DNA from: a virus
Length of the DNA stretch: 64,000 bases
Virus record (IMG/VR): IMGVR_UViG_3300045988_159113
Strand: one strand, 5' to 3'
Each line of letters begins with the position of its first letter. The first letter of the stretch is position 1. Made by a program: the position numbers and the translations under genes. The notes under the pieces were generated by a model. That model saw only the letters and a list, made by a program, of their open reading frames with translations. It did not search any database and was not told the DNA's origin. Positions 6,001 to 51,590 of this stretch are shown one piece after another.

Positions 6001-8608
6001 CACGCCTACCATAGATACTTCTGCCATCAAGATTTTCATAATAGAACGTGCCATTGTCATTGAGTTTCAAATCTCCTTTTTTATGTTCAATTGTTTCTCC
6101 GCTTATAGGATCCTTATGTGTTCCATCTTCGTCCCATTGTGCAAGCACACGAGTATCAAAGAAATCAGTGAAAAAGCTATCATTTGGAGAATCATGGTAA
6201 ATCGGTGCTGCGCCATTCTCAACTTCAACTGGATTTGCAAGTACTTTTTCTGCTTGCGCTATTTCATCAATTGACTTTGTCCTTTTACCAGGTTTACCAA
6301 GTTCGGCTATGCTGCTAGTAATTTGATAAGGATTTGACGCTTTGACAAATTCAGAATCAAAATCATCTCTCCTTTGCTTGTCAGGTGCGAAAAAGTTATC
6401 ACGATGAAATGAAACAAAATTTGAAAAATCCTGTTCTTGTTCCTATGTTGCCATTACATTATACATTGACAACACATTATCATAGAATCCTTTGAATTCT
6501 TTTTCATTAAAATTCCCACTTTCTGTTTTAAAAGCCTACTGTACCAATTCGTTACTTTTGTATTCATCGTAGTCTTTTACAGTGCTATTGTCTGCAGTAA
6601 TTCCAACAGTCTATAAATCACCCATGCTAAGGGTCGGATTTACGAGCACGTTAAGCAGCAAATCATTTTTCTTTTCCTCATTCATATGTCAAAGTTTTGA
6701 AGGATCAACATACCTTGCTTTTACATCATCTTTGTGTTTAGTTATCTATTGCTATGTCTCTATTACCTATGAATATGCAGGAGGTAACTTCTCACCTGAT
6801 CCAGATTGGGCAGAGAAATAATCAACTTTGACTGGAACAAATACGGTTCCTTTGTAATAGTGATCATGACCATTCCAATCGTACCAGTTATCTTCATCAA
6901 ATTCAAATCCTCCTTCACCATCTTTCTCCCAGTTATTCGCTTTCTTAATTTGGGCTGTGATATTTTTGATTCTATTGTCATCCTTAATCTCTTCCAGATA
7001 TTGATTTTCATCAAAATCAGCATCACCCATTGCCTTATCATATGCTATAGCATTGATGACTCCAAATCTTCTCCATGCTCCATTTTTTATCAACTGACCA
7101 GTCTTGTCATATGCAACCGGCAATTGATGTTGCTGATATACTTGGTTTATTTCGTCGACATGCTCAGCAATCTATTCTGGACTATTCATCAAGATACCTT
7201 TTTCTCTAAGTTCCTGATCAGCTTTCGTCTTCCTTTGCATAGCATCAAAATCTGGAGCAATCTCTCCTTGCTGTGCTTTCTCTAAATCAATAGGCATATC
7301 TACAGAATGAATAACGCTGTCATTGGTCAACACTTGATTCATTGTTTCAGGATTGAGTTTTTGACCGCCAATTGATGCATTAGTCCAATCAAGTATTCCT
7401 GTATACTGACTTTTTGTAATATCCTATATTGTTGAAATAGCGCCATATGGTGTGCCCTCTTTTGACACAATTGGTAAATCATTACCGAAAGTTTTAATGC
7501 CATCCACGGTTTGGTTTTGAATAACAAACTAGCTTTTGTTTCCGTAGCCAAGCATCCACTATGTTGCCACATTCATATCCTATCCATCTTTTGTTGCAGT
7601 AGCTTTTGCTCCTGGCTTATTTCCTGTTGTATCTTCTACAAGATTGCGATCAATAGTTTGTTTTGAAGATGTCGTCATTCCGACCTTCTGTCCAATGATG
7701 ACATTCTTGATATAATTCAGCGCTTCTTTATCACTTGCCTTTCCGCTTTTAATATGCAGCAACTATTTCGCATTTTCTGGCAATTGGTTATATATATAAC
7801 TGATTGCTTCCTGTGCTTGTCTTGCCTGTGTCTCTGTTAAAGATTTAATCTTATACAAGCCATCAACAGAAACAGACGCAATATCTTCGCCATTGTATGC
7901 CTTTTCAACAAGAGCCTATAAAGCTTGCTGTCTTTGCTATGTCTTTTTTGATATGTACTGACTTGATGATTCTTCATCTTTCCCTAGACTCATCATGTAC
8001 TATTTGATAAGTTTGTCAACTTGCTCTAACCCAATGCCATTGTTGACTATTTCCATTACCGTATTATCATATGCTGAATTTTTATTTTGTGCTCTATAAT
8101 CCAACAGATTAGAATTTGTGTAAAGGCTATATTTGCTTGGGTCCTGCAAATATGTTTCTATCTTTATTGGTTTAGGCTCATTTTTTTCGTTACGAACAAA
8201 CACATATCCTCCTTGTCCTATAGCAACCTCATTTAGGCCCTTGTTCTAGCTCACAGTCTTGTATGCTTTATCATATTCCTGTTTATTAAATTCTGCGCGT
8301 TTAAGGTCATGCATAGCACTAAGATATTGTGTCGATAAATCACCAGTGCTTATTCCGAGATCTTGCAAGTCAAAAAACCTTGACAATCTGGAGTATATCT
8401 GTTCCATATCAGAAGGTAAACCTTTAATATTTCCAAGAAGATTCATCAAGTCCTTATTCGTAAGTTGTCCCTTGTCTTCTTTTGTTTTTGTTGTAGTATC
8501 ATCGGTTTCCACTTGTCTGGATAGTCCCAAATCAACAGTCACTGGCCTATATACTGAGAACGGGGGCATTGATCCCCCGCTCTACATCTAGTTAATTTTA
8601 TATATCAT
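1..8608 (-). CDS. Giant virion-associated protein B, partial (>2,860 codons; 3' end lies beyond the window start), read with TAG=Gln; contains an SF1-helicase-like P-loop NTPase module
   Basis: Twelve track ORFs (620..1705 through 8246..8569) share one minus frame. The junctions I hand-checked (620, 1730, 1994, 5636) are single TAG codons. Hand translation of 2..620 and 2614..2790 in that frame shows TAG but no TAA/TGA; other gaps not scanned. ATG 8606-8608 overlaps the upstream TGA (ATGA). Walker A GPGTGKT ~2186-2206; Walker B IIIIDEISQ and GDTNQ ~1736-1846; DADFD (DxDxD) ~7010-7024; Gly/Ala-rich hydrophobic stretch ~5700-5900; P/G/S/T linker ~740-960. Confidence 0.75.
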
Positions 8609-11600
8609 TTTATGAATCGTTTAATTGCATTCAATTCATCCTTTGACAATCTATCTATTGATTTTGATAATAATTTGCAACTATCAGCTATTTGCTTTGC
8701 AAGTCTATCATTGTTACTTTTTGATCTTTTCACATCAGTATCATCTATTTTTATGCCTTTCTTTGCTTCTGGTATACCTGTAACAGTATAGCTATCAATC
8801 GATCTCTTCGTGGGTGAACCAGAACGCAAATCCATCATATTGTATAATTTCAAGCCCTTTCTCTTAGCCAATTCATTATATATATCAATCTTGTCTTGCA
8901 GTCCTTTTGTTGCTTCGTACTATTGCAATTGAAGCTTCCTCTTGTAGAATTCCTCAGGTGAAATATTCGGATCAAGCAGCGATTTCTTCAGCTTGTTATA
9001 TTCAGGTCTGCTGTTCATCCATTGCTAGAAATTAAGTGGCATCATTATACTATCATACTTGTTTTGTGCATATTCTTTCTTTTGGCGATCTTGCGCCCAA
9101 AGCGTTCCACGCGTATTTTGAATTGCACCAAGATAATTCTGCGTGCTGTCATTGTCATATGCAATATATGCTGACTTTGCCCTTGTCTTATTGTTTGCAA
9201 GTTCTGCTAATGCAGCACTATTCTATGTCTATGTCTTGAGATTATCCTGATATACATTTTGATTCAGACTGAGCTAATTTTCACCAGTCTTGTACATCCG
9301 ATCATTATATATAGCATTGCCCTGCATATTCATCTTACCAGCTGTACTTGCACCTTCAAGTGCTGCCGCATTGTTTATATTTGCATCAGATGACTTTGCT
9401 TTTCCAGCTTGTGATTGAATCTGTGCGCCTTGCTATCTTTGACTCTCTTGACCGAGGTAATCACCATATGTATATCGGTGCATGTTCATCGGATTCTTTA
9501 ACGAAGTCCTGATGTTCAACATTTCCTGAAGTCTGCGCTTGTTATTCTTTCTGTTAGAAAGATAACGACCAAATCCAAGTGCATCGTATGCAAGCTTATT
9601 CATATTGCCATCAAGATAGGTTCGCACTTTGTTGAGCCAATTACTACCTTCGCCTTCTCCATCTCCACCAGTATTGAATCCACCACCGCGTCCGGTATTT
9701 TCTCCAGTAATCTCTCCAGCTGCAGGTTTTGGTTTCCCTTCATTCATTAATGAATTAGCCTGTTCTTCTGTTAACTTTGCAATATCACCATTGGCTTTTT
9801 TATATACATATGCAGTTTCACCATTTGACAATTTAATAGGATGAATTCTTGACATCTTACCTTCAAGTGTATCCTTGTCCCACTCTGTCTTATATCGGTC
9901 CATTCGACGCATCCAGGTTTGGGTTCCCATTGTGTCATCGATATTGTCCTGATATCCAATGTTCCAGTTTATACCTCTATTATTTGAATTTTGGCTTCTA
10001 TTATAGAACATCTATTTGAACAATCGGTTGTGATCTTGTATATTCTGGCCTTTATCGGTGTTTGCACTGTATGCCGTATCTATAGTTGAGCCATCAGGCT
10101 GCACACCCCAGAAACTCCTGATCTTACCAGCATCTGTGTTGTAATGACTTATGAAATCATCGATATTGTCAGTGTTATATGCTGTTTGATAGTATCGCTG
10201 CAAATCATCGCCTACTATATCTGCTTGTGATGTATATGCGTCATTTTTTGCAGCAGCCTGTCCAAGATCGAAATTTTTATTGTGATCATTTGCATTCAAA
10301 TCAGAATTTGCAAACTGGTTCCTATTTCTAAGATTTGCATTTCCAAGATTCTTCTATTTCCACAGGTCATTATACCATGCCCAATCTTCTGGGTTCTGTA
10401 CAACTTTATCTCCGTCTGCAGCCTTTAAGATGCCACCTTTAGCGTTAGATGATATGGCGGTGGAATCAATATCATCTGAGGTAAAATTTACGTCACGCAA
10501 AGATCTCATGCGTTCAAGAACACCACCATGCTTAAATGGAGGTGCTGTTGTTGTACTGCCTCCAGCGGGTGTTGGTGCAGTAGTAGCTGATGGTGGCGTT
10601 GTTGGTGCAGCAGTTCCTCCAGTTGGAGCTCCGCCTGTTGTTGGCGTGGTAGTAGTACCGCCTCCTGTGGTGGGTGTCACTGCAGGTCTCGGCCTTGGAC
10701 GTGTTGTTCTCGGTGCTTTTACTTTAATCTCTATTGAATCATCGGCATTCATGATTCTATCCATCAAATTGTCAAGATCAACAAATGAACCACGCTTTGC
10801 TTTCCTTATCGCATTAGCAAATTCAGCTTCAATGTCAGCTACTGTTTTACTTGTTCCGTGAACTTCTTGCAAAAGATAATTTTCTATATCGATTTTTACA
10901 TCTCTGCCATTCACATCATGCAAATTTTCTGGAAGCATATCTTTTAATCTGTCAGTCACAACATCAATATCTCCAAGAATCTGATTTTTCTCTGTTTCAG
11001 TTTTGACGGTCAATTTCCCTTTTAGCTTTGTGCTTAATTTATTATTAGCTGCGGCAATCTAACTTTTAGCAGCATTTTCTGCTCTTTGTGCGTTTGCTTT
11101 ATTTATTGCGTCCTTTGTTTGAGCTCTACGTTCAATAAACTGTCTTGTTTTTGTATTGAGTTCATATTCACTCATATCTGGATGTCTTGTTTTCAGATTA
11201 TCTCGTCTTGCTTGTGCGTATGTCTATATTTCTGCAATTTCGTCAGGATCGAAACCATAGCTTGCAACTTTTCTGGCTGTTGCTTTCTCTGCGGCTTCAT
11301 CAGTACGTATAAGTCTTAACTCGTTCTGTATATCTATATCTGTCAATGCAGAACCTGTTCCAGTTTTAGAAAACTCATCATTGTTTTTGTTTATATAATC
11401 ATTGAGTTTCTGCTTTTCAGAATTTGTCAATCCTCCACGTGTAGCCTCTGCTGCTTCTAAACGGTCAAATGCTGATTTGTTAGCATTATATCTATCTCTT
11501 AAAGCTCTAAACTCAGCCTCTGATACGGTAGAGCCAGCCGCTCTTGCTCTAAGCTCTGCATTATTAGACATTTCTGAACCAGCTGATGCCTTCCATGCTT

Positions 11601-14600
11601 CAAGCTCGCCAAGGGATTTTGCAGTATCAAATTTAGTTTGAAGTTCTGCGTTTACAAGTGCAGTATGCGTAGGATCATTCGATAATTTATAAACAGCCGT
11701 GACATCAGAATCATCAGCTGCTGCTATACCATTGCGACGTGCATAATCAGCAAGATCATTCAGTTTTGTTCTTGATGTAGTAGTAGCGTATAAATCATCA
11801 GCTATCAAATTGCCGGCTGCATCTTTTGCACCATATGTTCCAACTCTTCCCTCAATGAGTCTTTGATTTGCAATTTCTCCAGACTTCAAGCCTCTACCCA
11901 TATCTTCGCGAAGCATCAATGCTATATCTATGTCATCAGCATATCTTGGCGTTGCTGCGTTCGGATCAAAATTAGGATCAATCTTGCCGGAATAATATTC
12001 ACGAAGTGCCTTCTGCTGTTCAGGATTAAGACCATCAAAAAGATTGTCCATGATCTTTGGACCAGCTCCTGCAGTTCCTTTCAGATATTCTTTCGCAAGT
12101 TGTGTCTTCTTATATTGAGGCTGTGGGCCATGCACTCTTTCATAATCTGCTATATAATCAAGCACTGGCTGCTTATCTTTTCTTGTTCCAAACCAATCCT
12201 GGAATTGCTTTGCATCATATGCTTTTGTTCCGGGTTTTCCAGCCTGTTTTTCAATCTCTCTTTCAGTTATTATTTTGTTATCGAGCATATTATCAGTCCT
12301 TGTTCTAACTGCTCCCATGCCACGCGACATTTCAGCATTGGTATTGAGGTAATCCATGGCCCAACCTAAACCTTTACCTAAGTATGCGCGATCAGCTGCT
12401 CTTTGGCCAACTCTCATTCTAAGATTGCGCAATCCATCGGCAGTCTTTGGATCATAAGCGTACCCACTTTTAGTTTTCATTCCATCCCAGAATCCAACCT
12501 CATCGGTAAAGTCTCCAATCTTCGGACCACGTTTGAAATGACTTGTCCAACCTGTTGCCTTAGTCCAACCATCAGGCATAACAACAGGAGCATTTGGATT
12601 TACACCAACAGATATATCATGAGCTTTTACTTGGTTCAATCCTTCAAATTTAGATTTGGCAGCATCAAGTCCAGCAACTTCCTATAATTCAGCAAGTTTT
12701 GTATCATATGCTGTCTTTTCTGCAGCACTCAAACTTGATATTTCAGTATCGGCAGGCTTGCCGATTCCTTTCATGACTTGATCTTTGCCTATTGCATCAG
12801 CTGCCGTCTTATATGCTGAACGCATATTCTTTTGATCCTATACGCTCAGTTTTATTTCTGCTGCATTACCGTCTACATCAACCATATTCAAAACTTTTGG
12901 AGATGTAGGATCAGCATTGTTTGTCAACCAATTGCCAGCATGGACATCATCACTCCAAAGTACATTTGCCTAATGTCTTGTGTTAGAGTACTACAATGCT
13001 TGTTCTGGAGTTCCTGCTTTAGCCCAAGCTTCACCGACAGCCTTATTGACACTTTCTGATGTTGCGCCTTCTGCTTTTACAGCTTTATCAAAAGCTGCCT
13101 TCATTGCTTTCTTCTGCTTAGCTGATACTTTTATCTCGTTGCCATTAGCATCAGTGAAAAGGAAACTATTGCCACGTCCTGCGCCTTCTGATGTTGATGC
13201 CATAGGCTGATAAAGACCTCTAAATGCAGCCTTCGCATTTCTACCAGGAGATAATGCAAGGATAGGATCACTGACAAACGCTGCTGCTTTTCCTGCTATA
13301 TTATTGCCAAATTTAGCTGCAGCTTGTCCAGACAGTGATTTGGTACCAGTAGCAGCTCCGGAAGCCATAGAATAATAAGCATCAAGTTCTCGTGCTTCTT
13401 CGTGAGAAAGCGTGCCTGCTTTATCCTTTGCTCTCAACTCCTTGATTCTATCGAGATTTGACAGAACATTGTAAGCACCCAAGCCTGTCATTCCGAGCTG
13501 TGCTGCTGCCTTTCCTGCTTTTACAAGACCTCCACCAGGTATGAGCATCAAGCCGGTCATTCCTGCGTTTATAGCAAGGTTGCGCATCATCTCACTACGC
13601 GATACGCTGTCATCCATTGCATCAGCTATTAAGTTGCCGACTGTTCCAGCTGTTCCTCCAATGGCACCTATAGCATTACCAATAACAGGAACAAAAGAAG
13701 CAATACCGCTTGCAATATCAAGGTTTGTGCTCCATTTGCGAAGAGATGAACCTTTTTGAGTTCCGGCTTTTTGCTTGCCTTTCTTTACATCTTCAACAGA
13801 CATATTCCTGGCCTTAGCTTCTGCTTCGTATCTCAGTTCACGTTCTGCATCGTTCTACTGATTAGCTTGCTGTCCAAGAGCTGCAAGATCATAACCACTA
13901 GCAGCTTTGATAATTCCACCTGTACGCAAAGCTTCAAGTTTAGCACCATATTTAGCCCAGACATGAGCGCCTCCAGCTGATGTTCTACGACGTCTTGGAT
14001 TCTTCTTTTGATATTCAGATTTTAGATACTGGTATAAAAGTGGAGTTTCTGAATCACTCACATGTACTCTAGAGAATTGTTTTGTTTTCTTGTTGTACAT
14101 CAAAGCGGTTCCGTTCTCGTAGTTTATTGTTTTGTTAAGATAGAAACGATCCTCGTCAACAGGCGTGATATAAGAAGGATTCTTTTCAAATTCCATCATG
14201 ATACCACGCAAAATATTAGAGTTGGTCATTCCATTGGGGCCTAATTGGTTAGGATTAATACGCTGTCCATTCATAACCAACTCGAGCAACTTATCTGCAT
14301 ACTGTGCGTTTCTCTGATCAGAAAGCCAAGATGGTGTAGAATCAGCCTCGCTAGTTCCAGAAATGCCGCTCCATTTATCATGCATTGCCTGATCCCAAGC
14401 TCTGGTATCAAGTTGCTGCTCTTCATTGAATGTGTCGCCTGTCCATCCCCAGTGATTGTTTGCCCAATTCTAATAGTTGCGATTGTATGTTGCATCTCCG
14501 TATTTTCTATCTTTCCAATCTTCCGTGAATTCCTGAAGTGCTGCACGGTACTCTTCTTGAGTAATAACTCCTGCCTTGAGCTCTGCATCAAGCTCCTTCT

Positions 14601-15447
14601 TCTTCATCTTGAGCTGATTATTGTATGATTCAGGATCATCATCAACTTCCTCTTCTTGACCATTGCCAAGTAAACGTTCACGTAATGATCTGCCAAATCC
14701 TATAGCGTCTAATGCTGTTGCATCATTATTGTCGTATGTTCCATCTGCTAATGATGCGGCTGCTTCTGCGAGCTTCTGCTTATAATCTGCAAGATCATGG
14801 AATGCACTACCCTGAAAATCAAACGAGTCATCGTTTAGAGTTCCTGCATAATCGGTAAGCATCTGTGCAAGAGCGTTTGCTCTATTTGTATTACCACGTA
14901 CTCCATTATCGTCTAATGCATCACGATCAACCCAAGATTGAAGATCTGCATCCTCATTTCCGCCATAGAATCTATTCCAGAAATATTTTCTAAGAGCGCC
15001 AAAGTTATACTTTTCTTTTTCTTTAGCTTTAGGTGCTTCATATTGAGGCGCTGATTCCAAAATCTTGTCTAACAAGCCAAGACCATATGATTGCATCTTG
15101 TTATCATCTCCAAGAAATGTTCCAGAGTAGATCATACCATCGCCACGTCTCAAAGACCCATCACGCAGTCCTTGCTGGATTTTTGCAGCTTCATTCAAAA
15201 ACTGATTATATTTCTTGCTGCCTCTACGGAATCCTATATGCTCAGCAAACAAAGGAATATTCTTTTCGTAAAGTTCTGCAAGCTTAGCAGCATCATATTT
15301 CCCACTTGATGTCTAAAATAATACGGGCTGCTCTTCATCGGAAACGGGGGCCTCTACAACTACCTATTCCTTAGGCACAGATGGATCACTTCCAACTACC
15401 GTTCCGCCTGTTTGTAATTTTTTAATATATTGACTCATATTTTGCAT
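8605..15447 (-). CDS. Giant virion-associated protein A (2,280 aa with TAG=Gln), function unknown (cargo/ejection-type protein suspected)
   Basis: Track ORFs 8605..8871, 9433..10011, 10012..10299, 10354..11013, 11224..12639, 12991..13803, 13855..14385 and 14470..15252 share one frame. Breaks at 9433, 10012, 10354, 11224, 12991, 13855 and 14470 are all TAG. Gap 8872..9300 was hand-translated: 5 TAG, no TAA/TGA. ATG 15445-15447 is preceded by an in-frame TAA; the gene ends at TGA 8605-8607. T/P/G/A linker ~10560-10700; glycine-zipper-like hydrophobic region ~13500-13750. Confidence 0.8.
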
Positions 15448-15451
15448 TTAA

Positions 15452-15487
15452 ACTAAAAAAGGAGGTATAAATTATTATATACCTCCT
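15452..15487 (-). terminator. Rho-independent terminator after the small Q/G-rich gene
   Basis: Inverted repeat ggaggtata / tatacctcc (15461-15486), followed on the minus strand by a T-run (plus-strand aaaaaa at 15455-15460). Confidence 0.7.
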
Positions 15488-15515
15488 CCGTCCTTAAACC
15501 ATTAATTTCTATTTA

Positions 15516-15887
15516 TTACCTACGGATGTAGCCTACGAGTTTACCACCTCTGCGATACACGGGCTCGCCCTGAGGAGCTTCCTGCTTGGGTGCGCCTCCG
15601 CCCTGCTGCATCATCTGGATAAACTGCACAATGCCATCGCAAGCCTGCATAGCAGTATTGCAGTCCTGACTCTGTAAAGCCTGAGCTGCCATCTGGCCGA
15701 TCTGCATCAACATTTCCATTGGATCACCGCCACCCTGAGGTGCACCGCCCTCCTGGGGCTGCTCTGCGGGTTCCTCTTCCATGGGAGCCTCAGCGGGAGC
15801 TCCACCTTCAGCTGGTGCGTCTACAGGACCGCCCTGCTGGAACTTCTTAACGCCCACAACGGGCACATTACGAAATCGAATATTCAT
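15516..15887 (-). CDS. Small low-complexity Q/G/P/A/E/M-rich protein (123 aa), visibly GC-richer than its neighbours
   Basis: Intact track ORF with ATG start, TAA stop and no TAG. Bracketed by a promoter-like motif upstream (15927-15943) and a strong terminator downstream, suggesting a separately and highly expressed unit. Confidence 0.75.
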   Translation of the reverse strand: MNIRFRNVPVVGVKKFQQGGPVDAPAEGGAPAEAPMEEEPAEQPQEGGAPQGGGDPMEMLMQIGQMAAQALQSQDCNTAMQACDGIVQFIQMMQQGGGAPKQEAPQGEPVYRRGGKLVGYIRR

Positions 15888-15926
15888 ATTTGTTGTTAAG
15901 TTTAATTAAACGTTTCGAGAATTAAC

Positions 15927-15943
15927 GCAACAATTATAGTATT
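15927..15943 (-). promoter_or_regulatory. Promoter-like motif (minus strand AATACTATAATTGTTGC), copy 1 of 4
   Basis: Contains TATAAT. Near-identical copies lie at 30667-30684, 36763-36779 and 45757-45772, each upstream (minus sense) of a TAG-poor, GC-richer gene. Confidence 0.45.
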
Positions 15944-15974
15944 AAATTATCACATTATATGAATTACTTTTTAA

Positions 15975-16106
15975 TGGACACGAAAAATATAGTATATATA
16001 CTGGATACGAAAAGACCGCTATGGTGGACACGAAAAAACATTTTTCCTCATTCAAGTTTAAGCGTATACTGGACACACCTTTTTTACTTATATACTTGGA
16101 CACACC
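15975..16106. repeat. Array of five short direct repeats: TGGACACGAAAAA x2, TGGATACGAAAAG, (TA)TACT(T)GGACACACC x2
   Basis: Copies at 15975-15987, 16002-16014, 16025-16037, 16070-16079 and 16097-16106. They lie in the intergenic gap between the ADH-fusion stop (16112) and the promoter-like motif. Confidence 0.6.
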
Positions 16107-16111
16107 TCGAA

Positions 16112-17986
16112 TCACTCTTCTCCTCTTTTTGTTCCTCCTTGGATAAGCTTTCCGTTTAAGTTTAGCCAATTCTCCGGATTTTCTCTAGTTTGGAAATATC
16201 TGATATATTCCTCATCTGTATATTGTGTTCCGTCTTTCTTCTTATGATCCTTTGGCGGTGTATAGATCCACCTGTCCCCGTCTTGTTTCCATGCATCTTT
16301 ATTTACTCCTGGCCATGTGATATGCGGTTCTAATTTATAGTCTCCGTTCATATGCGGCCAGTTCCAGAATTTATTTTTTGGTGCTTCTTTAGCTGCTTCT
16401 CGATCTTTCTTTTGCCACTCGTCGTATTCATTTTCGAAAAACGTGTGATAATCGTATGTTCCATCATCTACATCTATCCCTCTACCTCTTAACATATCAA
16501 GGAAAGCCTCGTATTGCCAATCTGTCTTTTTTCCTGGGATTGGATAAGCAGCTTGTACTTTTCCGCGGTATTTCTCACCATCTCCGAATATGAAGCCGAT
16601 GCTAGAGGGCAACCACTCGGTGGCTTTTATATAGTCCTCTTTTGTGTATGGCTTACCGTTCTCGTCAACCTGTCCCTCTGTTGGCCTTATAAACCAATCG
16701 CCGTTGAATAATATAAGGTTCGGGTACCAATCATCAGGTCCCTTTTTCCCGATGTATCTAACATCGTAAGGATTAAAGGCGTAATCTTGCAACTCATCAG
16801 CTATATATGAGTTTTGCGCGTTTCTGTAATTCTTAAACACTTCTGGTTCGTGTTTCTTTTTAATACTTCCGCCTTTTTTATGTTCCTCGATTTTCTCTTT
16901 ATCTTCGGGTTTATCAAAGTCTTTCATCTTTATGACAAAACGGCCATCAACTTCACGATTGCGCATTTTCTGATACGCCTCATCTATAGCTTCTGCTGTG
17001 GGTTCTATCTCTTCAACAATAGGGAAGATGTTGGCTTTAATAGAGAAATCAACGCATAGCTATGTCTCGCTTATTCCTCCGATCAGACTTCCGAAAAGTT
17101 CAACACCTGGAAACTCAAGTATCAAGTCTTTGATAGAGATGTCGGGACATTCATCATATGGAGGAATGCCTACTATTGCAAGCTTTCCGCCACAATGCAA
17201 GAGTCTCATGTATTTTTTGAGGTCGTAATTATACGGGATTGTTATAATTCCAAAATCAAACTTTTTCTCAAAAGACTCATCAATCTCTCCGTCCTCCTCT
17301 ATTTTTGCAAACTTTACATCTACTGCACGTGCTAATTCTTCCCTATCCTCTATATCAAAAGCTACAACCTGGCAGTTTATAGCTTTGAGATATTGGGCCG
17401 CCATATGGCCAAGACCACCAAAGCCTGCAACAAAAACAGTTGAACCTTCCTCTACGTTAGCCTGTCTGATAGGTGAGAATGTAGTAATACCAGCACACAT
17501 GAGGGAAGGGATCTTTGGGAGATCTTCCTCTTTACAGTCTACCTTTATTGCAAAGTCTTGCTTTACAACATAACACGTAGAATATCCGCCTTGTGTTATC
17601 TCATCGTTATCATCCCAGTTTTTAGCGTTGTAAGTGAGAACCATTTTCTTGCATTCCTGTTCTCTGCCATGATCGCAAGCACAACACTCACCGCATGAGT
17701 TAATCATGCAGCCTATGCCTGCATAATCTCCAGCTTTGAATTTCTTGACATCCTTTCCGCAACGGATAACTTTTCCAACTATCTCATGACCAGGCACAAG
17801 TGGAAAGTTAGCTTCTCCCCAATGGTTTTCCACAGCGTGGAGATCACTATGACAAATACCAGCATATAAAATTTCAATAAGTATATCATCATCACTAATA
17901 GCGGGACGTGTAAATTCTATCCTCTGGAAATTTTGATGTGGGCCTTGAAGACCAAAGCCTACACATTTTATTCGTTCAATATCCAT
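16112..17986 (-). CDS. Zn-dependent alcohol dehydrogenase (MDR superfamily, cinnamyl-ADH/YahK-like) fused to a ~270-aa Trp/Lys-rich C-terminal domain of unknown function (624 aa, one in-frame TAG)
   Basis: Track ORFs 17060..17986 and 16112..16966 are in the same frame, joined through TAG 17060-17062. Motifs: GICHSDLH, GHEIVG, CGECCACDHGREQEC (structural Zn), GFGGLGHMAAQY (Rossmann). The C-terminal ADH end YQKMRNREVDGRFVIKM appears only after read-through. Ends at TGA 16112. The ATG overlaps the upstream TAA (TAATG, 17984-17988). Confidence 0.85.
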
Positions 17987-19098
17987 TACTTTTTGTTTTT
18001 GTCAAGCTGTACATACTCTGCATCTCTTCCATCCTGTGCGTCTAATTCTTTGAAGACATAACGCCCAAGACTTGCGCAATATTTCTCATATTCCGGACGT
18101 TTCCGATTTTTCCACGCCCTCTTTGCTTTTGTTATTATTACTTTTGTTGATTTTCTTGACATGATACGCTGGCCGGATTTGAGCTGGTACTAAGTCTCCC
18201 CATCACTTCCCAAAACTTCCATAACGTATTCATCATCATCTCCTGGAAGCTCAAGCTCATCTCCTGGTTTTACATCAGCATCTGGGTTAAGCTCTACCAC
18301 AAACTACACATCGTCTTCGTGGATAAGGTTTTCAGATAATGGTGCACCTTCTTTGACAGAGATGCATTCGAAATCTTCATTGAAAAAGCAGATTTTGAGG
18401 GGTATCTCTGTGTCTTTCATCCAATAGTCAACACTACACGGTTTGTCGTAGTAGAAGATCATACCCTGATCTTTTCCAAGATAGCTGACATTTTGCAAAC
18501 CTTCGGCTTTCTCCTCTTCGGTCTTAGCCTCCCAGAGATGGTAGGTGTTGTTCCCTATCTTCGCCTCTACTGTTGGCTTCTCTGGTTGCTGTTTTGACTC
18601 TTCTTGTTTTGCTCCTTGCTATTCTTTCTGGATATTTCCGCCAGTCTTGAACAACTGCATTCCATTGAATGCACGCAATACATGGTCATCATCCATAAGA
18701 GCCAAAAGCTTCTTCATAGATGAGCCGTGCTTTTTCTTGTTTTCTCTTATCTCTTTGATATCTTCGACTGTGTATTTCTTGTCAGATTTAACTGATCCGA
18801 TCACATCTTTCAGCATATCAGAGAACCCGTCGGTCTCGTACGCTATATCAGGGCCTCCCATAGTTATGATGATCTCACTATTACCTCCAAGGATCTTTTC
18901 AAGTCGTGAAGGTTTATAATCATCAAGGCCGTTTGTAAGCCCAAGAGCTTTTAATACAGAACAGATAAGGCAGTCGAGGTTATCGCTATCATTCAGAACT
19001 GCCTGAGGTTTCATTTCCTCCTTTATTTCCTCCTCCTTCTTCGGCTCTTTCTCCTGTGGTATTGTCTCCTCCACAAGATCCTTGAATGTCTTTTTCAT
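17986..19098 (-). CDS. DUF192-domain protein with a Lys/Glu-rich N-terminal region and a basic C-terminal tail (370 aa, three in-frame TAG)
   Basis: Track ORFs 18619..19098 and 18304..18498 share a frame with TAG at 18619, 18304 and 18190. The DUF192 pattern is recognisable: AKTEEEKAEGL..GMIFYY..DYWMKDTEIPLKICFF...VQFVVELN. TAA at 17986-17988. Confidence 0.7.
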
Positions 19099-19495
19099 GA
19101 TAATATGCCAAATAAAAATATTTTTTCTTTATATAATCACCATTTAATTCTCGCCTGGCCTGTGCAAACATCTCATAATAGTTGGGAATTTCCACCATAT
19201 CCTGCAACTCTTCGAGTTCCATTTCTCGTATGGCTTCCATTTCCACATTCTCGAGTTGTTCTTTTGTAAGCTATGCATCGTGATATTTGGATCTCATATC
19301 AAACGCTGGGGCGTTCTCTTTTATGAATTGTTTGTATTTATACATCACGATCATCATTTCGATAGAGATCCCAAGCGCAGACTCAAACCCATAATACATA
19401 TAACACGGAAGATCCACATAGTGGAATTGTACGGGGTCTCTCCATATGAAAAATTTTTTCTTTAGATTGACCCCGTATTTTATGCTTCTTTTCAT
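18989..19495 (-). CDS. Hypothetical protein (168 aa, one TAG)
   Basis: Track ORFs 19271..19495 and 18989..19246 are in the same frame across TAG 19271. ATG 19493-19495 overlaps the upstream TGA (ATGA). The 3' end overlaps the next gene by 110 nt, so the true end is uncertain. Confidence 0.6.
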
Positions 19496-20676
19496 ACTTT
19501 GATCTGCTTAATCAACCCGACGCGGTCGTCGGTGTTCTCCATCATCTCTTCAGCGATAAGCTTACCGGCTTCAATAGCAAACTCTTGTTTCTCTTGTGCG
19601 TCATCGCTCTCGTTATACTTATCGCGCAGTTTCTCTACTTTCTCTGTGAGATCAGCGGAAAGGATCCATTCAGAATGTTCTATCTCTGCCACCTATTCCA
19701 CTTGCTACCCATCTTTTGCTATCGTCACGACGGGGATGCCCTTATGTGTTATTTCACCTTTAAGGTCATCCCTCACCTCTTCGATATGGTGTTTGTCTTT
19801 ATGGAGTGCACCCTCTGGCAAAAGAGACATCTGCCCTCCATTCTGGAACATATCGATCGTGTCAATGACTGGCACGTATTCTATCGGTTCCTGTTTTGCG
19901 TGTTGCTTCCTGTGATTATATGCCACACGGTGAGCTATCTAATACTAAGATGGCAATATTCCGCCTTTCTTAGCACTCATCGGCATAGCCGACCAATCCG
20001 TACCATTCATCATATTTTGATATTGCTGGTTATTCATATCTTGCTGATTGGCTAATGCATCCATCAGCATTTTGTTTTGGTTCATTATAGATGCCATGTT
20101 GTTTTGTAGTCTTCCAGCTGCTGCCATCTCATCATTTGCTCGGCCTAATGCTTTCCTACTAAACAGGCCATATTTCTTTCCTGACTTCTCTGCTGCATCC
20201 ATAACATCATCGGCAGCTCCTGAATAAGAATCACCACCAAGTGCCAAGGTCTAGGTGTCAGCTTCCATAGTGTCGGATTTCTTAGCTCCTAAAGCATTGA
20301 TGAGCCCGAAAGGAGTAAGAGCCATAAATGACGAATCCAAGAACGCATCAGTCTTTGTCATTCCCGAAGTCCCGACTCCCATAGAATGCAAGGCTTTTGC
20401 CCCCAATGCTCCGAGCTTCATAATACCGCCAGCCATTGGGTTAATCTAACCGACAGCATCAGCAACGCCATTGTATCCTGCATCTAGTCCTGCGGACAGA
20501 TTGCCATATCTTCCTTGGTAGTTATCAGGTTCAGGGAACAAACCACCTAGTGCATTTGCAGCATTGCCTACTGTTCCCCAGATGGCACCAGGAGAAGCTG
20601 CTGTTTGTTTTAGTCCATCGCTTCCTTTACCGGTACTTACGACTCTACCGCTTGCTGCGTTATTTTCTGTACTCAT
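19492..20676 (-). CDS. Hypothetical virion protein, Gly/Ala/Met/Asn/Gln-rich (394 aa, several TAG)
   Basis: Track ORFs 20446..20676, 20251..20436, 19945..20247, 19705..19926 and 19492..19692 share one frame. All junctions are TAG (20446, 20251, 19945, 19939, 19705, 19693). ATGA overlaps at both ends. Confidence 0.75.
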
Positions 20677-36830: not shown

Positions 36831-37746
36831 CAATTTGTTATATTGCATCTTTTTATATGCACCTCTATAGCTCACACTATAGTTCAGACTATATCATCAC
36901 TTTCGTGTCGGGCACTCGTGTTTGGATTATTGCTCGCGTTGCTCACCAATTAGTCGTTAGCCTTTATCTGTACATTTAACGCTTCCAGATATTAGGACGG
37001 GATTTTCCACTTTCGGACCTTCCCCGTTTCCACCCGATTTTCTCATTATAAAAATGAGCCTCAAATTTTCTTGATTATATAACGTTTTTTATACATATAT
37101 CCATCTTGATAAGCTTTGCGCATTGAGTTTGCATTTATATTTAGGTTTGGATTTTGTTTTGCAAAATCATTTATAGGCATGATATATTTTTTATTTGTCT
37201 CTGTATCTATTATTAAGCGTGCTATTTTTCTTAAATTAGAAATTTTAGATCTTGTTGCATCGCTTACTATTTTATTTTTATGATACAAACCTATTTTGAT
37301 TTTTGTTTCCTCGCTTACATAATGCCCACGTAATTTTTGGCTCAGAATATTCTTCGTTTCTTCCGTGTGATGTTTTCCAAACATTCCGTTTTCAACTCCA
37401 AATCTTTTGCGTTTGGAAATCCATTCTTTATTTTGTTTGGTTCCAGAACAGTCTGGAGTATAACCAAAATATCTGTTTATACAAAAATCATCAAATTCGC
37501 AAATCTTCAAAAGATGAACTTCATAATCATTAGCATCTTTTCTAGTTCTAAATGTTTTAATTATGATCTTTTGTAATTTATATCTATTTGTTTCTATATA
37601 TGATTTTGTCCAAATAGAACTAGAGCCCATATATGAGTCATTGCAAATATCACATTTGCAACTACGTACCCCGATATAATATCTGTTAGTTTCGGTATTA
37701 TATATCATATATGTATAATGATTCATAAATTGCTATATATATATAT
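36831..37746 (-). mobile_element. Group I intron-like element I11 (subfamily B) with a 5'-located GIY-YIG HEG, immediately 3' of the apparent capsid stop codon
   Basis: On the minus strand: P-like ATATCTGGAAGC, Q-like ACAGATAAAG (TCTG/CAGA pairing), R CTAACGACTAA (~36949-36961), S GATATAGTCTGAAC (36882-36895). A P9 hairpin plus ATATAACAAATTG 3' end (last G at 36831) matches the other ten introns. The 5' boundary is not determined. Confidence 0.6.
37061..37726 (-). CDS. GIY-YIG homing endonuclease with NUMOD3-like repeats (221 aa)
   Basis: Intact track ORF. N-terminal YTYMIYNTETNRYYIGVRS is a GIY...YIG pattern. Repeats GKHHTEETKNILSQKL and SEETKIKIG are NUMOD3-like. No TAG. Confidence 0.8.
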   Translation of the reverse strand: MNHYTYMIYNTETNRYYIGVRSCKCDICNDSYMGSSSIWTKSYIETNRYKLQKIIIKTFRTRKDANDYEVHLLKICEFDDFCINRYFGYTPDCSGTKQNKEWISKRKRFGVENGMFGKHHTEETKNILSQKLRGHYVSEETKIKIGLYHKNKIVSDATRSKISNLRKIARLIIDTETNKKYIMPINDFAKQNPNLNINANSMRKAYQDGYMYKKRYIIKKI

Positions 37747-37875
37747 TTAAGGATTAAACACAGCTACGCCAGAGTATCCCCATGCGATAAGCTTGCTAGC
37801 GGCTACGGGGCTGCTTACTGCGCCGCCCTGGAGACCAGTCTTGCCGCCTACGCCCAGGATTTCGTTCTGGATGTA
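37747..37875 (-). CDS. Capsid exon 11 (YIQNEILGVGGKTGLQGGAVSSPVAASKLIAWGYSGVAVFNP*)
   Basis: Starts right after the predicted terminal G of I10 (ATTAACATTTTTG|TAC). Open to TAA 37747-37749. GC-rich like the other exons. Confidence 0.65.
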   Translation of the reverse strand, partial: YIQNEILGVGGKTGLQGGAVSSPVAASKLIAWGYSGVAVFNP

Positions 37876-50102: not shown

Positions 50103-51590
50103 TTATAAAATATGCGCACCAGCCATGATGTCATATTTATCAAGTATGCCTTGGATACGTTTAATCTTCTTGTTCATATCACAAGATAGCTGTTTACCTC
50201 CGACATATATATCGTGTTTTTCAACATTGATAAATAAAACGTTTGCATAGTGCTTGTTAAAAATTAATTTAAGATACAAATCATCGTCAAGTGCGAAATC
50301 TTTAATCATATCGTAGTCGATAGCGTCCTCTAGAATATACGGAGGGATAAATGTCCCACCGCATCCAGTAGGAAGTAAAGAGCGAGTAGCTACACCTTGC
50401 GCACCACGAAATACTGGCCACTCTCCGTATGGCTTGATACTTCCGTCAATATCCATAGAAATCAAACGGCAACGGCCAGAGATAACACATCCCGGATTTC
50501 TTTGCCACCAGGTAAACATTCGCTGTATCATCGTGTTTTCGTATTCAACATCATCGTCTACTAACAAGATACAGCGATCGTAGTATTCAGTGGCTGCATA
50601 GATCCATTTGTTATGTGGTCCCATATCATCAATAACTGGGTGGACTTCTATATCTCCAGCTTTAACAAGATCAAGCAACTCCTGAGACATGTTTTTTACA
50701 TCATCAACTGGAATATTCAGAATGAATTTTTCCGGTCTCATCGTCTGCCTTAGAATGCTTAAAATCGCCGTCATGGAGTTATTCATCCTTTCGCCATATG
50801 TTGCCATAGATACAACAACACCCGGCAGTCTCTCCTGCAGCTTCTCCTTATATTGTGGAAAATGTGCAGCGAGTATGTTATGAATCTCTGTGTATTTCTC
50901 CTTGTTGACATCTGCCAGGCAATCCTCTTGGTTTGTCTGTATGTCATACCTACATATACCGTTTTCATAAAGTGATCGGTAACGTCTACCAGATAACACA
51001 CAAAACAAAAACTGCCACGTCTCATCCGATGTAGGAGAAAGTGCCATGAATTTTTCCCTATCAAAGAATAAAGGAGAGGTGAAAGTGTGAGCTGGGTATA
51101 AAGTGCCAGCTGCACCATTTGCCGGTTTCTGGTTTATTGTTGGAACGCCTCTGAGGTATATATTGTCAAAATTTCTGATTTCTCGCAGGCTTCCGTCGCG
51201 TTCGGTTATTACTACACTCGAAGTTTGCCCGTAAATAATATCCTCTGGGTACTTCTTATGCATCTCTATAAATTCATGTAGCCATCCTGGCCTCATTGTC
51301 ATATCATCATCAACTACAAGTATGGCGTTATCTGGGTATCGTTCGAGAGTTGGGATGAGTTTCTTATGGCTTCTTATATTGCCTTTGTCCCATATTATCT
51401 CAACGCCGAAATCCTCGCGCAAATCCTTTGGCAAATCAAGTTCCAGATTCGGGAACTCATCCTCGGACAATACGAGGACGAAATGCACATCGTCTTCTTT
51501 CTGTCCGAGGATTATATTGTAAATGTCCCGAGTAGTACCTATTCGCTTTGGGTATGATGTCATACTTACGATTAGTGTATCATTATTCAT
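50103..51590 (-). CDS. Tandem-duplicated GT-A-type glycosyltransferase (495 aa, no TAG)
   Basis: Intact track ORF. Two homologous halves are each anchored by a DDD motif: (IVSMTSYPKRI...ILVVDDDMT) and (VVSMATYGERM...ILLVDDDVE). The ATG overlaps the upstream TGA (ATGA, 51587-51590). Confidence 0.75.
   Translation of the reverse strand: MNNDTLIVSMTSYPKRIGTTRDIYNIILGQKEDDVHFVLVLSEDEFPNLELDLPKDLREDFGVEIIWDKGNIRSHKKLIPTLERYPDNAILVVDDDMTMRPGWLHEFIEMHKKYPEDIIYGQTSSVVITERDGSLREIRNFDNIYLRGVPTINQKPANGAAGTLYPAHTFTSPLFFDREKFMALSPTSDETWQFLFCVLSGRRYRSLYENGICRYDIQTNQEDCLADVNKEKYTEIHNILAAHFPQYKEKLQERLPGVVVSMATYGERMNNSMTAILSILRQTMRPEKFILNIPVDDVKNMSQELLDLVKAGDIEVHPVIDDMGPHNKWIYAATEYYDRCILLVDDDVEYENTMIQRMFTWWQRNPGCVISGRCRLISMDIDGSIKPYGEWPVFRGAQGVATRSLLPTGCGGTFIPPYILEDAIDYDMIKDFALDDDLYLKLIFNKHYANVLFINVEKHDIYVGGKQLSCDMNKKIKRIQGILDKYDIMAGAHIL

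Follow-up and report, generated by a model that had tools for sequence, protein, structure and literature searches.

Among the phages of the human gut, Crassvirales are dominant. Several phages are known to deliver enzymes with their virions. The ADP-ribosyltransferase Alt and the internal proteins of T4 carry an N-terminal capsid-targeting sequence that is cleaved by the prohead protease, and the virion RNA polymerase of N4 and MuF-fused toxins are further examples. We know of no oxidoreductase among the injected phage enzymes.

In PhiCrAss001, the muzzle gene is followed by gp45, gp46, and gp47, all of which encode virion cargo according to mass spectrometry and cryo-EM (PMC10172136). The known crassvirus cargo consists of non-enzymatic, mostly helical proteins or of RNAP-associated giants, and does not include a redox enzyme (Bayfield et al. 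2023, PMC10172136). The locus analyzed here is similar in its layout. In the window, i.e., the whole stretch of 64,000 nucleotides that was analyzed, a fusion of an alcohol dehydrogenase (ADH) and an orphan domain (X), termed ADH-X, is encoded on the same strand as the muzzle protein, past its gene and ahead of genes for giant proteins, like gp45/C1, gp46/C2, and gp47/49/50 of PhiCrAss001. However, BLASTP of ADH-X against gp45, gp46, gp47, gp49, and gp50 did not reveal any sequence homology, and packaging has been demonstrated for the PhiCrAss001 cargo, whereas it is proposed for ADH-X.

The enzyme half is close to the CAD-type dehydrogenase of H. pylori (3TWO), YahK of E. coli (1UUF), and Ahr, with which it shares the Pfam architecture, the catalytic and structural zinc sites, and the GxGGxG motif. 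The alignment with 3TWO runs from end to end, with about 43% identity. In contrast to these enzymes, ADH-X is phage-encoded, its gene contains a recoded TAG, and it has a C-terminal extension of 270 aa, whereas the tails of cellular ADH homologues are 4 aa long. Like auxiliary metabolic genes, ADH-X is a cellular-type enzyme that was captured and kept by a phage lineage, but unlike typical examples, it is situated in the virion/cargo operon and fused to phage-specific modules, and not in an early or metabolic cluster. The adjoining or fused partner of the ADH belongs to the DUF192 family (PF02643; PDB 3M7A, 3PJY), which does not offer a mechanistic lead. Unlike plain DUF192 proteins, the phage versions are extended by a helical N-domain and, at the other end, by a conserved basic tail.

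Results

The ADH-X gene and its internal TAG codon

The features of the locus are compiled in Table 1. A first-pass annotation of the window had proposed an open reading frame that ends with the TGA at 16112 and is read through a TAG into the C-terminal region. The coordinates could be reproduced, with the start codon ATG at 17984–17986, the stop codon TGA at 16112–16114, and a single in-frame TAG, and the C-terminal region turned out to be conserved.

Table 1. Features of the ADH-X locus and the surrounding block (positions in the window)
Feature	Position	Strand	Remarks
Muzzle protein, 2001 aa, 19 TAG codons	20673..26678	-	Orthologue in L003 has Pfam crAss_MUZ (PF25731)
Post-muzzle protein, 394 aa, Gly-rich N-terminus	19492..20676	-	IDMFQNGG and PEGALHKDKHH motifs; positional counterpart of C1
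DUF192 gene upstream of ADH-X, 370 aa	17986..19098	-	TAATG coupling
ADH-X gene	16112..17986	-	624 sense codons plus TGA stop; fusion protein of 71.6 kDa, pI 5.0, with TAG = Gln
Zn-dependent MDR alcohol dehydrogenase domain, aa 1–354	16925..17986	-	Pfam, PDB matches, Zn ligands
In-frame TAG, codon 309	17060..17062	-	Glutamine, by codon comparison and alignment
Disordered Lys/Glu-rich linker, aa 355–380	16847..16924	-	Predicted from low pLDDT
Junction motif H-K-K-G-G, aa 369–373	16868..16882	-	Family consensus K-[HF]-Q-x-G-G, also K-H-(Q/K)-x-G-G
Orphan domain X, aa 381–618 (381–624 up to the stop)	16133..16846	-	AF2; no family match
Second junction-type motif L-I-Q-G-G, aa 614–618	16133..16147	-	Six residues ahead of the stop
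Spacer after ADH-X, 224 nt	15888..16111	.	Five local GTGTCCA-type direct repeats
Gln/Pro/Ala-rich protein, 123 aa	15516..15887	-	KKFQQGG near N-terminus, PVYRRGGKL near C-terminus
Giant protein, 2280 aa, start MQNMSQYIKKLQTGG	8605..15447	-	Positional counterpart of RNAP-associated cargo gp47
Protein of 639 aa, start MIYKINQMQSGGSMPPF	6689..8608	-	N-terminal motif kept in L005, L007, L014, L016

The TAG at codon 309 is read as glutamine. In six related genomes, CAG (L009–L013) or CAA (L003) is found instead, the alignment with 3TWO and YahK places the codon at the invariant Q of GGIxETQ, and a Q is present at this position in 119 of the 121 aligned ADH homologues. TAG and CAG are also exchanged reciprocally between ADH-X orthologues at codons 110 and 525. 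TAG is a sense codon throughout the window, and ORFs of 2280, 2001, and 1300 aa, which contain 17–19 TAGs each, are open only under this assumption. The alternative that TAG 17060 might terminate translation, considered in the first-pass annotation, is contradicted by the codons of the relatives and by the window-wide sense use.

TAG represents one of the 21 Gln codons of ADH-X versus 16–28% of the Gln codons in neighboring genes. TAG codons are present inside ADH orthologues, and therefore, translation of the ADH is tied to the suppressor regime of the structural genes. A scan for phage tRNAs in the 64-kb window, out of a genome of about 193 kb, did not find a tRNA, and a scan for sigma-70 promoters and terminators around ADH-X did not yield an excess over the shuffled expectation. 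The GC content of the gene, 40.5%, is the same as that of the genome. The JGI/IMG annotation divides the same product into a 308-aa "zinc-type ADH-like" protein and a 284-aa hypothetical protein. As this split with its shortened ADH shows, the standard-code annotation hides the fusion protein.

The alcohol dehydrogenase domain

The MDR motif set noticed in the initial reading of the sequence (catalytic zinc site, structural cysteine cluster, and GxGxxG) was located completely. Both Pfam domains scored above the gathering score (ADH_N: 8.5e-23, 81 versus 23.5 bits; ADH_zinc_N: 9.4e-13, 48.7 versus 31.8 bits), ADH-X matched PHROG 2640 at 1e-40, and the best PDB matches of the domain were 3TWO (1.4e-84) and YahK 1UUF (4.7e-66). 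The catalytic zinc ligands are Cys45 in AGICHSDLH (aa 42–50), His67 in PGHE (aa 65–68), and Cys164. They align to 3TWO and 1UUF and are, like Glu68, the same in each of the 121 aligned homologues, which contradicts a loss of catalytic residues. The structural zinc site is complete (C98, C101, C104, C112) and also invariant in the 121 homologues, and the dinucleotide-binding motif GxGGxG (GFGGLG, aa 188–193) is invariant among homologues. The full-length AF2 model was built from P0003, which is 95% identical to the window protein, and its ADH part had pLDDT values of 90–98. The dN/dS of the domain is 0.02–0.07; thus, the ADH half is under purifying selection.

The domain belongs to the CAD/YahK/Ahr branch of zinc-dependent alcohol/aldehyde oxidoreductases, and its active site is apparently intact. 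The closest NCBIfam model is Ahr (NF047908), but the score of 192 bits is below the equivalog cut-off of 470 bits. The end of beta-2 reads VVAFD in the window protein versus SVFAR in 3TWO and VAFTTS in YahK, so that ADH-X has an Asp (D211) in place of Ala-Arg or Thr-Thr-Ser, respectively. D211 is invariant in all 23 phage-clade sequences, and the residues after beta-2 are not small or basic, as would be needed for the 2′-phosphate of NADPH. The Asp at the end of beta-2 suggests that NAD rather than NADP is the cofactor. The earlier assignment as an NAD(P)-dependent CAD/YahK-type enzyme thus stands with respect to the family and the full catalytic set, with a minor correction of the cofactor toward NAD.

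The orphan domain X

The C-terminal region had been described as Lys/Trp/Asp-rich and unrecognizable, and both attributes were borne out. The tail contains 9.8% Lys, 9.8% Asp, 7.8% Tyr, and 4.5% Trp. Comparison of X with Pfam, including permissive scans, and a PDB-profile search returned only noise, NCBIfam and PHROG did not contain a match, and word-index searches with the single sequence and with a profile yielded only fragments. Six matches to X were found in 1.84 billion (1.84e9) representative proteins. The AF2 model of X (pLDDT 80, pTM 0.64) predicts a long helix, followed by two similar beta-hairpin-plus-helix units with helices between them. The core of the repeat unit is W-[FI]-[IY]-x-P-x7-[DN]-G-x-x-Y-T-x-E-[DE]-Y-I, and the internal repeat was detected with E=0.006. 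A Foldseek search of the model against PDB and BFVD found nothing under E=0.2, and TM values were below 0.2. Therefore, X is an orphan domain that resembles nothing known, yet it is conserved: its dN/dS is 0.07–0.15, and the X half is under purifying selection.

The X ORFs of L010–L012 are split. Frameshifts were considered and rejected as the reason: the lengths of all indels are divisible by three, and the ORFs are interrupted by TAA nonsense codons, at codons 400 and 414 in L010 and L011/L012.

The linker and the QxGG junction motif

The pLDDT values of the linker between the ADH and X were below 57 in the model of X, and they did not reach 50 when P0003 was modeled in full length. The linker contains a junction motif that is present 10–25 aa past the last ADH strand in 13 of the 22 phage-clade ADHs, and that is kept irrespective of whether X, DUF192, another domain, or nothing follows. 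Seven clade members (P0007–P0013) are stand-alone ADHs with short tails that do not contain the QxGG motif. The second junction-type motif, L-I-Q-G-G at the end of X, is conserved in P0003 and P0122 and is the counterpart of the KEKGG junction after X2 in P0127.

The motif is also found at the N-termini of three conserved neighboring proteins, even at loci with an ADH identity of 50%. With the motif as defined post hoc, the block yielded 10 matches over 4430 aa, versus 4 in 12567 aa elsewhere. It is absent from the third giant protein. The PhiCrAss001 cargo protein gp45 bears six aromatic-x-x-GG motifs.

The ADH is combined with different modules in the relatives. The DUF192 protein is fused to the ADH in P0020, P0021, P0022, P0027, P0031, P0037, and P0051, and it adjoins the ADH in L007, L014, L016, and L022. 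In L038, the X2 half is also attached to the DUF192 protein, and in L005, it forms the end of the post-muzzle protein. Hence, the modules (ADH, X, DUF192, and others) swap partners at QxGG junctions.

Gene order around ADH-X

ADH-X is located in the post-muzzle block, which encodes virion cargo in PhiCrAss001 (PMC10172136), in agreement with the initial placement in a virion/cargo block. The proposed coupling to the upstream DUF192 gene was likewise found, as an overlap of stop and start codons. However, ADH-X does not directly precede two giant genes, as had been stated, but lies between the genes for the muzzle protein upstream and the 2280-aa giant downstream, and the gene for the 123-aa protein intervenes. 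At every locus with a muzzle gene, the ADH follows the muzzle on the same strand and adjoins or is fused with DUF192, and the subsequent order is a protein of about 100 aa, a giant, a protein of about 640 aa, and a second giant. With regard to phage affiliation, the Crassvirales signatures crAss_MUZ and CrAss_Ring_1 are present in the orthologous locus L003, a weak Ring_1 match was found in the window, and muzzle orthologues with crAss_MUZ also occur in L005, L014, and L015.

The 370-aa DUF192 protein consists of a helical N-domain, an LFKTGG motif, the DUF192 domain (aa 191–283, E 1.4e-15; match to PDB 3M7A at 5e-9), and a conserved basic tail. For the 394-aa post-muzzle family, neither BLASTP nor hhalign revealed homology to gp45 or gp46, and therefore, the protein is termed a positional counterpart of C1 only. 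The 2280-aa giant had only a weak BLAST match among the PhiCrAss001 proteins, to gp49. Both terminal motifs of the 123-aa protein are kept in L005, L007, L014, L016, L022, and L038. The spacer between its gene and ADH-X is the site of a TAG-free ORF of 502–506 aa in some relatives. The spacer repeat TCGTGTCCA was also considered as a genome-wide motif, but this was rejected, because 9 matches were found versus 10 expected. In L007 and L015, HExxH proteins come after the ADH; a HExxH homologue or motif was not found among the ORFs of the window.

The block is not uniform in the relatives. In the L038 lineage, it is present without any ADH. Non-virion inserts are a glycosyltransferase, RepL, and MUG113 in L014, and the 502-aa TAG-free ORF in L003. 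As the block tolerates such clearly non-virion inserts, position alone does not prove packaging.

Relatives and origin of ADH-X

The fusion of ADH and X is also present in P0003, P0005, and P0122 and on five IMG/VR contigs of 139–197 kb. Public collections contain the exact 624-aa product; its 90% cluster has 777 members, on contigs of 139–198 kb, and the fusion recurs in independent assemblies and in lineages that are only 47% identical in X. This contradicts the possibility, noted in the first-pass annotation, that the fusion might be absent from related genomes and represent an assembly chimera.

In a neighbor-joining tree, the 23 phage ADHs are monophyletic. They are 48–84% identical to one another and 43–53% identical to cellular ADHs, the nearest of which are bacterial ADHs of about 375–380 aa, with Bacteroidota records among them. 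This pattern fits one old acquisition that was followed by retention.

A blastn search of the locus against GenBank phages did not give a match. A tblastn search with ADH-X resulted in matches of at most 41% identity, mostly to bacterial contigs filed as phages, and in none to X. Zeta crAss-like genomes have sizes of 145–192 kb (PMC7886860). The lineage fits a Zeta-like, TAG-recoded crAss-like phage of about 140–200 kb, whereby Zeta is suggested by the size fit of the 139–198 kb contigs. A literature search for crAss-like phages or Crassvirales together with alcohol dehydrogenase or DUF192 did not return anything relevant (the DUF192 search mostly matched DUF1929), and the searched literature contained neither a cultured isolate nor a virion proteome of this lineage.

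Discussion

We hypothesize that ADH-X is a late-made enzyme that is loaded into the virion as cargo, and we give this role, which is reached by inference, about even chances. ADH-X would be translated as a single protein late in infection, while TAG is read as Gln. As a member of the post-muzzle cargo set, it would be loaded together with the DUF192 protein, the 123-aa protein, and the giants, and the packaged enzyme would be set free in the next host cell as soon as infection begins. There, its target could be an aldehyde or alcohol of the host, or the NAD(H) balance. The QxGG peptide might mark the borders between modules and act either as a signal for loading or as a site of processing. The late expression of the gene, the packaging and delivery of its product, the proposed function of the motif, and the preference for NAD are all inferred. 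In concept, such a system would be similar to T4 Alt, N4 RNA polymerase, and the MuF toxins, i.e., a late-made enzyme is loaded into the head by a short terminal peptide and injected before phage gene expression. However, the T4 targeting peptide is N-terminal, whereas the QxGG motif is located internally or on the C-terminal side of the ADH. The most far-reaching version, namely that the lineage injects a working NAD-dependent oxidoreductase and that hydrophobic-Q/K-x-G-G is a cargo loading tag or protease site of a shuffling "polyprotein kit", seems rather doubtful.

Several observations count against packaging. A folded, metal-bearing, and probably oligomeric Rossmann enzyme would have to unfold to exit through the tail and then to refold with zinc. 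In addition, P0007–P0013 and the third giant do not have the motif, L038 does not have an ADH, homology of the neighbors to gp45 and gp46 was not found, and the use of TAG in ADH-X is low. The main rival explanation is a late auxiliary metabolic gene, the product of which would be made beside the structural proteins and work in the infected cell, e.g., in aldehyde detoxification or NADH/NAD+ re-balancing, and would never be packaged; the position in the block would then reflect nothing but insertion tolerance. Such a gene is in accordance with the ordinary bacterial ADHs as nearest cellular relatives, the accessory genes housed in the block of relatives, the stand-alone ADHs without a junction motif, the lineage without an ADH, and the sparse TAG codons. 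Yet the ADH is held at the same place across the clade down to 48% identity, whereas other inserts are sporadic, it was repeatedly fused in frame to block modules via a motif that also heads the neighbors, and it is translationally coupled to block modules. Moreover, takeover and metabolic enzymes are usually early and encoded outside the virion operon. We assign an appreciable probability to this explanation, though one clearly below even.

The location in the structural operon and the fusion to non-enzymatic modules could alternatively mean that the fold was repurposed and that the ADH domain serves the virion in a non-enzymatic way, as a spacer, a decoy, or a structural module. This is quite improbable, because the active-site residues are preserved too strictly for a purely structural role: none of the 23 phage-clade sequences deviates in the three catalytic ligands, Glu68, the four cysteines of the structural site, GxGGxG, or the Asp of beta-2, and dN/dS values go down to 0.02. 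Of the three options left side by side in the first-pass annotation (a metabolic gene, a virion-delivered enzyme, or a repurposed fold), the last is therefore disfavored, and the evidence leans toward cargo. An artefact, i.e., a 308-aa ADH truncated at TAG 17060 with a non-coding remainder, or a chimera or host contamination, has a negligible probability. The split annotation in JGI/IMG corresponds to such a truncation, and the 2-kb contig P0002 shows a chimera-like join of the ADH to a MoCF-type domain just past the linker. In contrast, TAG is a sense codon across the window and replaced by CAG or CAA in six relatives, truncation at residue 308 would cost the final third of the cofactor domain, X evolves under purifying selection, and the fusion is found on independent contigs of 139–198 kb, with a gene GC content equal to that of the genome.

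The known packaged cargo of Crassvirales comprises channel-forming proteins and RNA-polymerase giants. If ADH-X is cargo and the junction motif is a loading tag or protease site, then to our knowledge ADH-X would be the first injected redox enzyme of a phage, and the motif would be the first signal to be proposed for the addressing of cargo in Crassvirales. X is a candidate for structural work as an orphan fold, and the QxGG junction motif is a concrete handle on cargo selection. An intact, conserved dehydrogenase in the cargo block that was repeatedly fused to other modules of the block suggests that some lineages may bring small-molecule chemistry into the host at entry. Without packaging of the enzyme, a specific redox step would still be required late in the infection by these phages.

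Reading frame and reality of the fusion

The frame of ADH-X, a gene that joins a zinc alcohol dehydrogenase (ADH, aa 1-354) via a linker to an orphan domain X, contains a single TAG, codon 309, and the first-pass annotation had considered that translation might stop there. Termination at this site is excluded by codon swaps in relatives and by the alignment of the encoded residue. In the codon alignment, six relatives have CAG (loci L009-L013) or CAA (L003) at this position, and reverse swaps are found at codon 110 (CAG in the window, TAG in relatives) and codon 525 (CAA in the window, TAG in L003). In the solved structures 3TWO and 1UUF, the aligned residue is the invariant Gln in GGIxETQ, and Gln is present in 119 of 121 homologues. 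Opening TAG as a sense codon across the window yielded ORFs of 2280, 2001, and 1300 aa, with 17-19 in-frame TAGs each, and the longest ORFs gained no length when TGA or TAA was opened instead. The whole window uses TAG as a sense codon. The JGI/IMG standard-code annotation of a 193,723-bp contig gives two proteins instead, a "zinc-type alcohol dehydrogenase-like protein" of 308 aa and a hypothetical protein of 284 aa; this split is an error of the standard code, and the exact 624-aa product is present in other public sources.

The fusion is genuine. Its absence from relatives would have pointed to an assembly chimera, but the 90%-identity cluster of ADH-X comprises 777 members, many of 622-624 aa and on contigs of up to 198 kb. 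The fusion is found on five IMG/VR contigs of 139-197 kb, and the related proteins P0005 (186-kb contig, ADH 84% identical) and P0122 (ADH 70%, X 47% identical) have the same architecture. The GC content of ADH-X matches that of the genome. The single apparent chimera that was met, P0002 (ENA, 2,063-bp contig, 490 aa), is 97% identical to the ADH up to the linker, continues with a MoCF-biosynthesis-type domain (PF00994), and is probably an assembly chimera broken at the linker.

Features of the ADH-X region; numbered genes are in transcription order
Feature	Position	Strand	Remarks
1. Ring protein 1		minus	first in order
2. Two small genes		minus	between ring protein 1 and muzzle genes
3. Muzzle protein		minus	2001 aa; orthologue carries Pfam crAss_MUZ
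4. Post-muzzle protein	19492-20676	minus	394 aa, Gly-rich
5. 168-aa ORF	18989-19495	minus	conserved in close relatives
6. DUF192 protein		minus	370 aa; directly before ADH-X
7. ADH-X	17986 to 16112	minus	ATG start, 624 sense codons, TGA end; TAATG joint with DUF192 gene
ADH-X, in-frame TAG	17060-17062	minus	codon 309
ADH-X, linker	aa 355-380		Lys/Glu-rich, predicted disordered
ADH-X, domain X	aa 381-618		Trp 4.5%, Tyr 7.8%, Asp 9.8%, Lys 9.8%
8. Spacer	15888-16111		224 nt, after ADH-X
9. 123-aa protein	15516-15887	minus	Gln/Pro/Ala-rich
10. 2280-aa protein		minus	after 123-aa gene
11. 639-aa protein		minus	after 2280-aa gene
12. Another giant		minus	runs off window

The enzyme half

The ADH half contains ADH_N and ADH_zinc_N (Pfam, above gathering thresholds), and ADH-X matches PHROG 2640 (1e-40). 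The closest solved structure is the CAD-type enzyme of H. pylori (3TWO, 1.4e-84, aligned end to end), and a second relative is YahK of E. coli (1UUF, 4.7e-66). The top NCBIfam model is that of the aldehyde reductase Ahr, with 192 bits versus an equivalog cut-off of 470, and the ADH half belongs to the Ahr branch without being an orthologue of any named enzyme. The catalytic residues, for which a loss had been considered, are all retained: Cys45, His67, Glu68, Cys164, the four structural cysteines, and GFGGLG are invariant in 121 of 121 aligned homologues, including 23 from phages. The dN/dS values versus five relatives are 0.02-0.065, and the AF2 model of the same domain in the 95%-identical P0003 has a pLDDT of 90-98. 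There is no sign of a loss of activity. The strand following the glycine motif closes with an Asp (VVAFD) that is common to the nearest cellular relatives, whereas 3TWO and YahK, which use NADPH, carry residues there that are small or basic; this Asp suggests a preference for NAD.

Domain X

The C-terminal part had not been recognized in the first-pass annotation, and it indeed has no match in Pfam, PHROGs, NCBIfam, or PDB sequences. An exhaustive HMMER search of 1.84 billion representative proteins matched only six, i.e., the full ADH-X orthologue P0122, four fragments, and P0127, which has another architecture. A fairly confident AF2 model from the six-sequence alignment (pLDDT 80, pTM 0.64) predicts a long helix and then two similar beta-hairpin-plus-helix units with helices between, which share the core W-[FI]-[IY]-x-P-x7-[DN]-G-x-x-Y-T-x-E-[DE]-Y-I. 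Foldseek found no match for the model in PDB and BFVD (best E 0.2, TM < 0.2). The aromatic hairpins bear a resemblance, and no more than that, to repeats that bind carbohydrates or the wall. With dN/dS values of 0.07-0.15, domain X is under purifying selection. Just after the linker, X is interrupted by a TAA in three loci from IMG/VR, at codon 400 in L010 and at codon 414 in L011/L012. These genes are otherwise 94-95% identical, carry a single TAA each and no frameshift, and their dN/dS downstream of the TAA is still low. The TAA codons represent nonsense alleles of very recent origin or else sequencing errors, and at most they indicate that X is separable from the ADH.

Gene order and the post-muzzle block

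The label "virion/cargo block" of the first-pass annotation is right by position, because in PhiCrAss001 the muzzle gene is followed by the genes for three proteins that were detected inside virions (PMC10172136), namely the cargo proteins gp45 and gp46, and gp47, which is RNAP-associated. No sequence homology to these PhiCrAss001 proteins was found. The TAATG overlap, from which the first-pass annotation took ADH-X to be translationally coupled to the DUF192 gene, is real. The lineage resembles the Zeta group of Yutin et al. (PMC7886860) in two features, contig sizes and TAG recoding.

The 168-aa ORF shares 110 nt with the start of the DUF192 gene, read in a different frame, and its final ~37 residues are of low complexity and perhaps non-coding. 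The 123-aa gene has a GC content of 57% versus ~40% in its neighbours and uses CAG for 17 of 17 Gln codons, with zero TAG and zero CAA; its product, also rich in Gly, is probably disordered. The spacer contains five local GTGTCCA-type direct repeats, which are not a genome-wide motif. At its site L003, L010, and L011/12 have a TAG-free ORF of 502-506 aa with a weak SNF2-like match, and L009 and L010 have additional ORFs of 209 and 149 aa between DUF192 and ADH. The region around the spacer looks like an insertion hot spot.

Elsewhere in the window, six Rfam group I intron matches lie between 39316 and 42633, and three TAG-free GIY-YIG/NUMOD homing-endonuclease-like ORFs (GC 26-30%) at 37061-37726, 40297-41361, and 42949-44055. 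Introns seem to have heavily invaded at least one structural gene in the region 37061-44055 (minus strand), a pattern that Yutin et al. (2021) described in crAss-like phages. A TAG-free family-2 glycosyltransferase (GT2; 50103-51590, minus) lies among putative tail or fibre genes, and the post-muzzle block of L014 contains another GT2.

Module shuffling and the junction motif

In a neighbour-joining tree the 23 closest ADHs form one clade, with 48-84% mutual identity and 43-53% identity to cellular ADHs (~375-380 aa). In all eight genomic contexts examined (L003, L005/6, L007, L014, L015, L016, L022, and the window), the ADH lies downstream of the muzzle gene in a TAG-recoded locus of one kind. 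In seven of them, the exception being L015 (contig end), DUF192 adjoins or is fused to the ADH, and a ~100-aa protein, a giant, and a ~640-aa protein follow. Seven representatives are in-frame fusions of the ADH to DUF192 and its conserved tail, P0016 is fused to another unrecognized domain, P0017 stops just past the junction motif, a QxGG-type short peptide at module boundaries, and seven others are stand-alone, ending in a short tail rich in Lys. Unusually, the window lineage has DUF192 ahead of the ADH and carries X. One half of X (X2) heads the DUF192 protein of L038, a lineage without ADH, and the L005 post-muzzle protein has a weak match to it (E 4e-5) at the C-terminus. Because the ADH is fused to varied partners and X2 occurs on other proteins, the block behaves as a set of modules with moving gene boundaries, of which the ADH is an old and mostly retained one.

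The ENA contigs L038/L039 keep a block of muzzle, post-muzzle protein, DUF192 protein, small acidic protein, and giant without the ADH. In L007 (1753-2652) and L015 (11110-11859), the gene that directly follows the ADH codes for a protein with HExxH (HELSH, HEFSH); the two proteins, of 299 and 249 aa, are homologous to each other, have no database match, Pfam included, and lack a counterpart in the window. They may form a metallopeptidase-like module of the cargo block.

The junction motif (hydrophobic-x-x-[FMLH]-[QK]-x-G-G) lies 10-25 residues past the ADH in 13 of 22 clade members, whichever module comes next, and ahead of DUF192 in DUF192 proteins. It occurs in the first 8-20 residues of the three conserved neighbours (~100-aa protein, first giant, ~640-aa protein; for example, MAQYIKKLQSGG, MKIKINKLQSGG, and MKLKFRKYQEGG), also at loci with only ~50% ADH identity. 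In ADH-X, the linker carries H-K-K-G-G (aa 369-373; ITKHQEGG, ITKHQKGG, and VEKHQGGG in orthologues), and a second such motif, L-I-Q-G-G, terminates X six residues before the stop. Motif-bearing regions are 6689-20676 (minus) in the window and parts of L003, L005, L007, L014, L016, L022, and L038; the third giant of the window has no junction motif. The window contains 10 motifs in the 4430 aa of the block versus 4 in 12567 aa elsewhere (1.8 expected from shuffles), but as the pattern was defined after inspection of the same sequences, conservation across genomes is the stronger evidence. The proven cargo protein gp45 of PhiCrAss001 has six aromatic-x-x-GG motifs. We read the motif as a module-boundary signal that may tag proteins for loading or mark a site for their processing; the window yielded no protease.

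The ~100-aa protein ends in PVYRRGGKL. The post-muzzle proteins of the window, L014, and L038 share F-Q-N-G-G-Q-[ML]-x-[LV]-x-P-E-G-A-L-H-x-x-K-H-x-I-E, and those of L005 and L015 retain its GG core.

Possible roles of ADH-X

Artefact explanations are excluded, and a structural role of a catalytically dead ADH is unlikely because the active site is invariant. The intact active site and the TAG codons within ADH orthologues argue that ADH-X would be translated late, as an NAD(P)-dependent oxidoreductase that is catalytically intact. Its location, its coupling, the recurring fusions, and the motif that it shares with its neighbours suggest that it would belong to the cargo module set of the lineage and would be packaged and then delivered along with the neighbouring proteins. 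We give this reading about an even chance. In the main alternative, which is somewhat less likely, ADH-X would be an auxiliary metabolic gene, also late, that just happens to lie in a block tolerant of insertions. This alternative is favoured by the stand-alone ADHs without the motif, by the accessory genes that relatives sporadically have at this site, and by the L038 lineage without ADH.

The ADH family itself is ordinary. Out of the ordinary are the conserved place and the fusions of the ADH in a crassvirus cargo block, the orphan domain X, and the junction motif; the literature searched contained no mention of any of them, and the GenBank phage records searched contained no close homologue.
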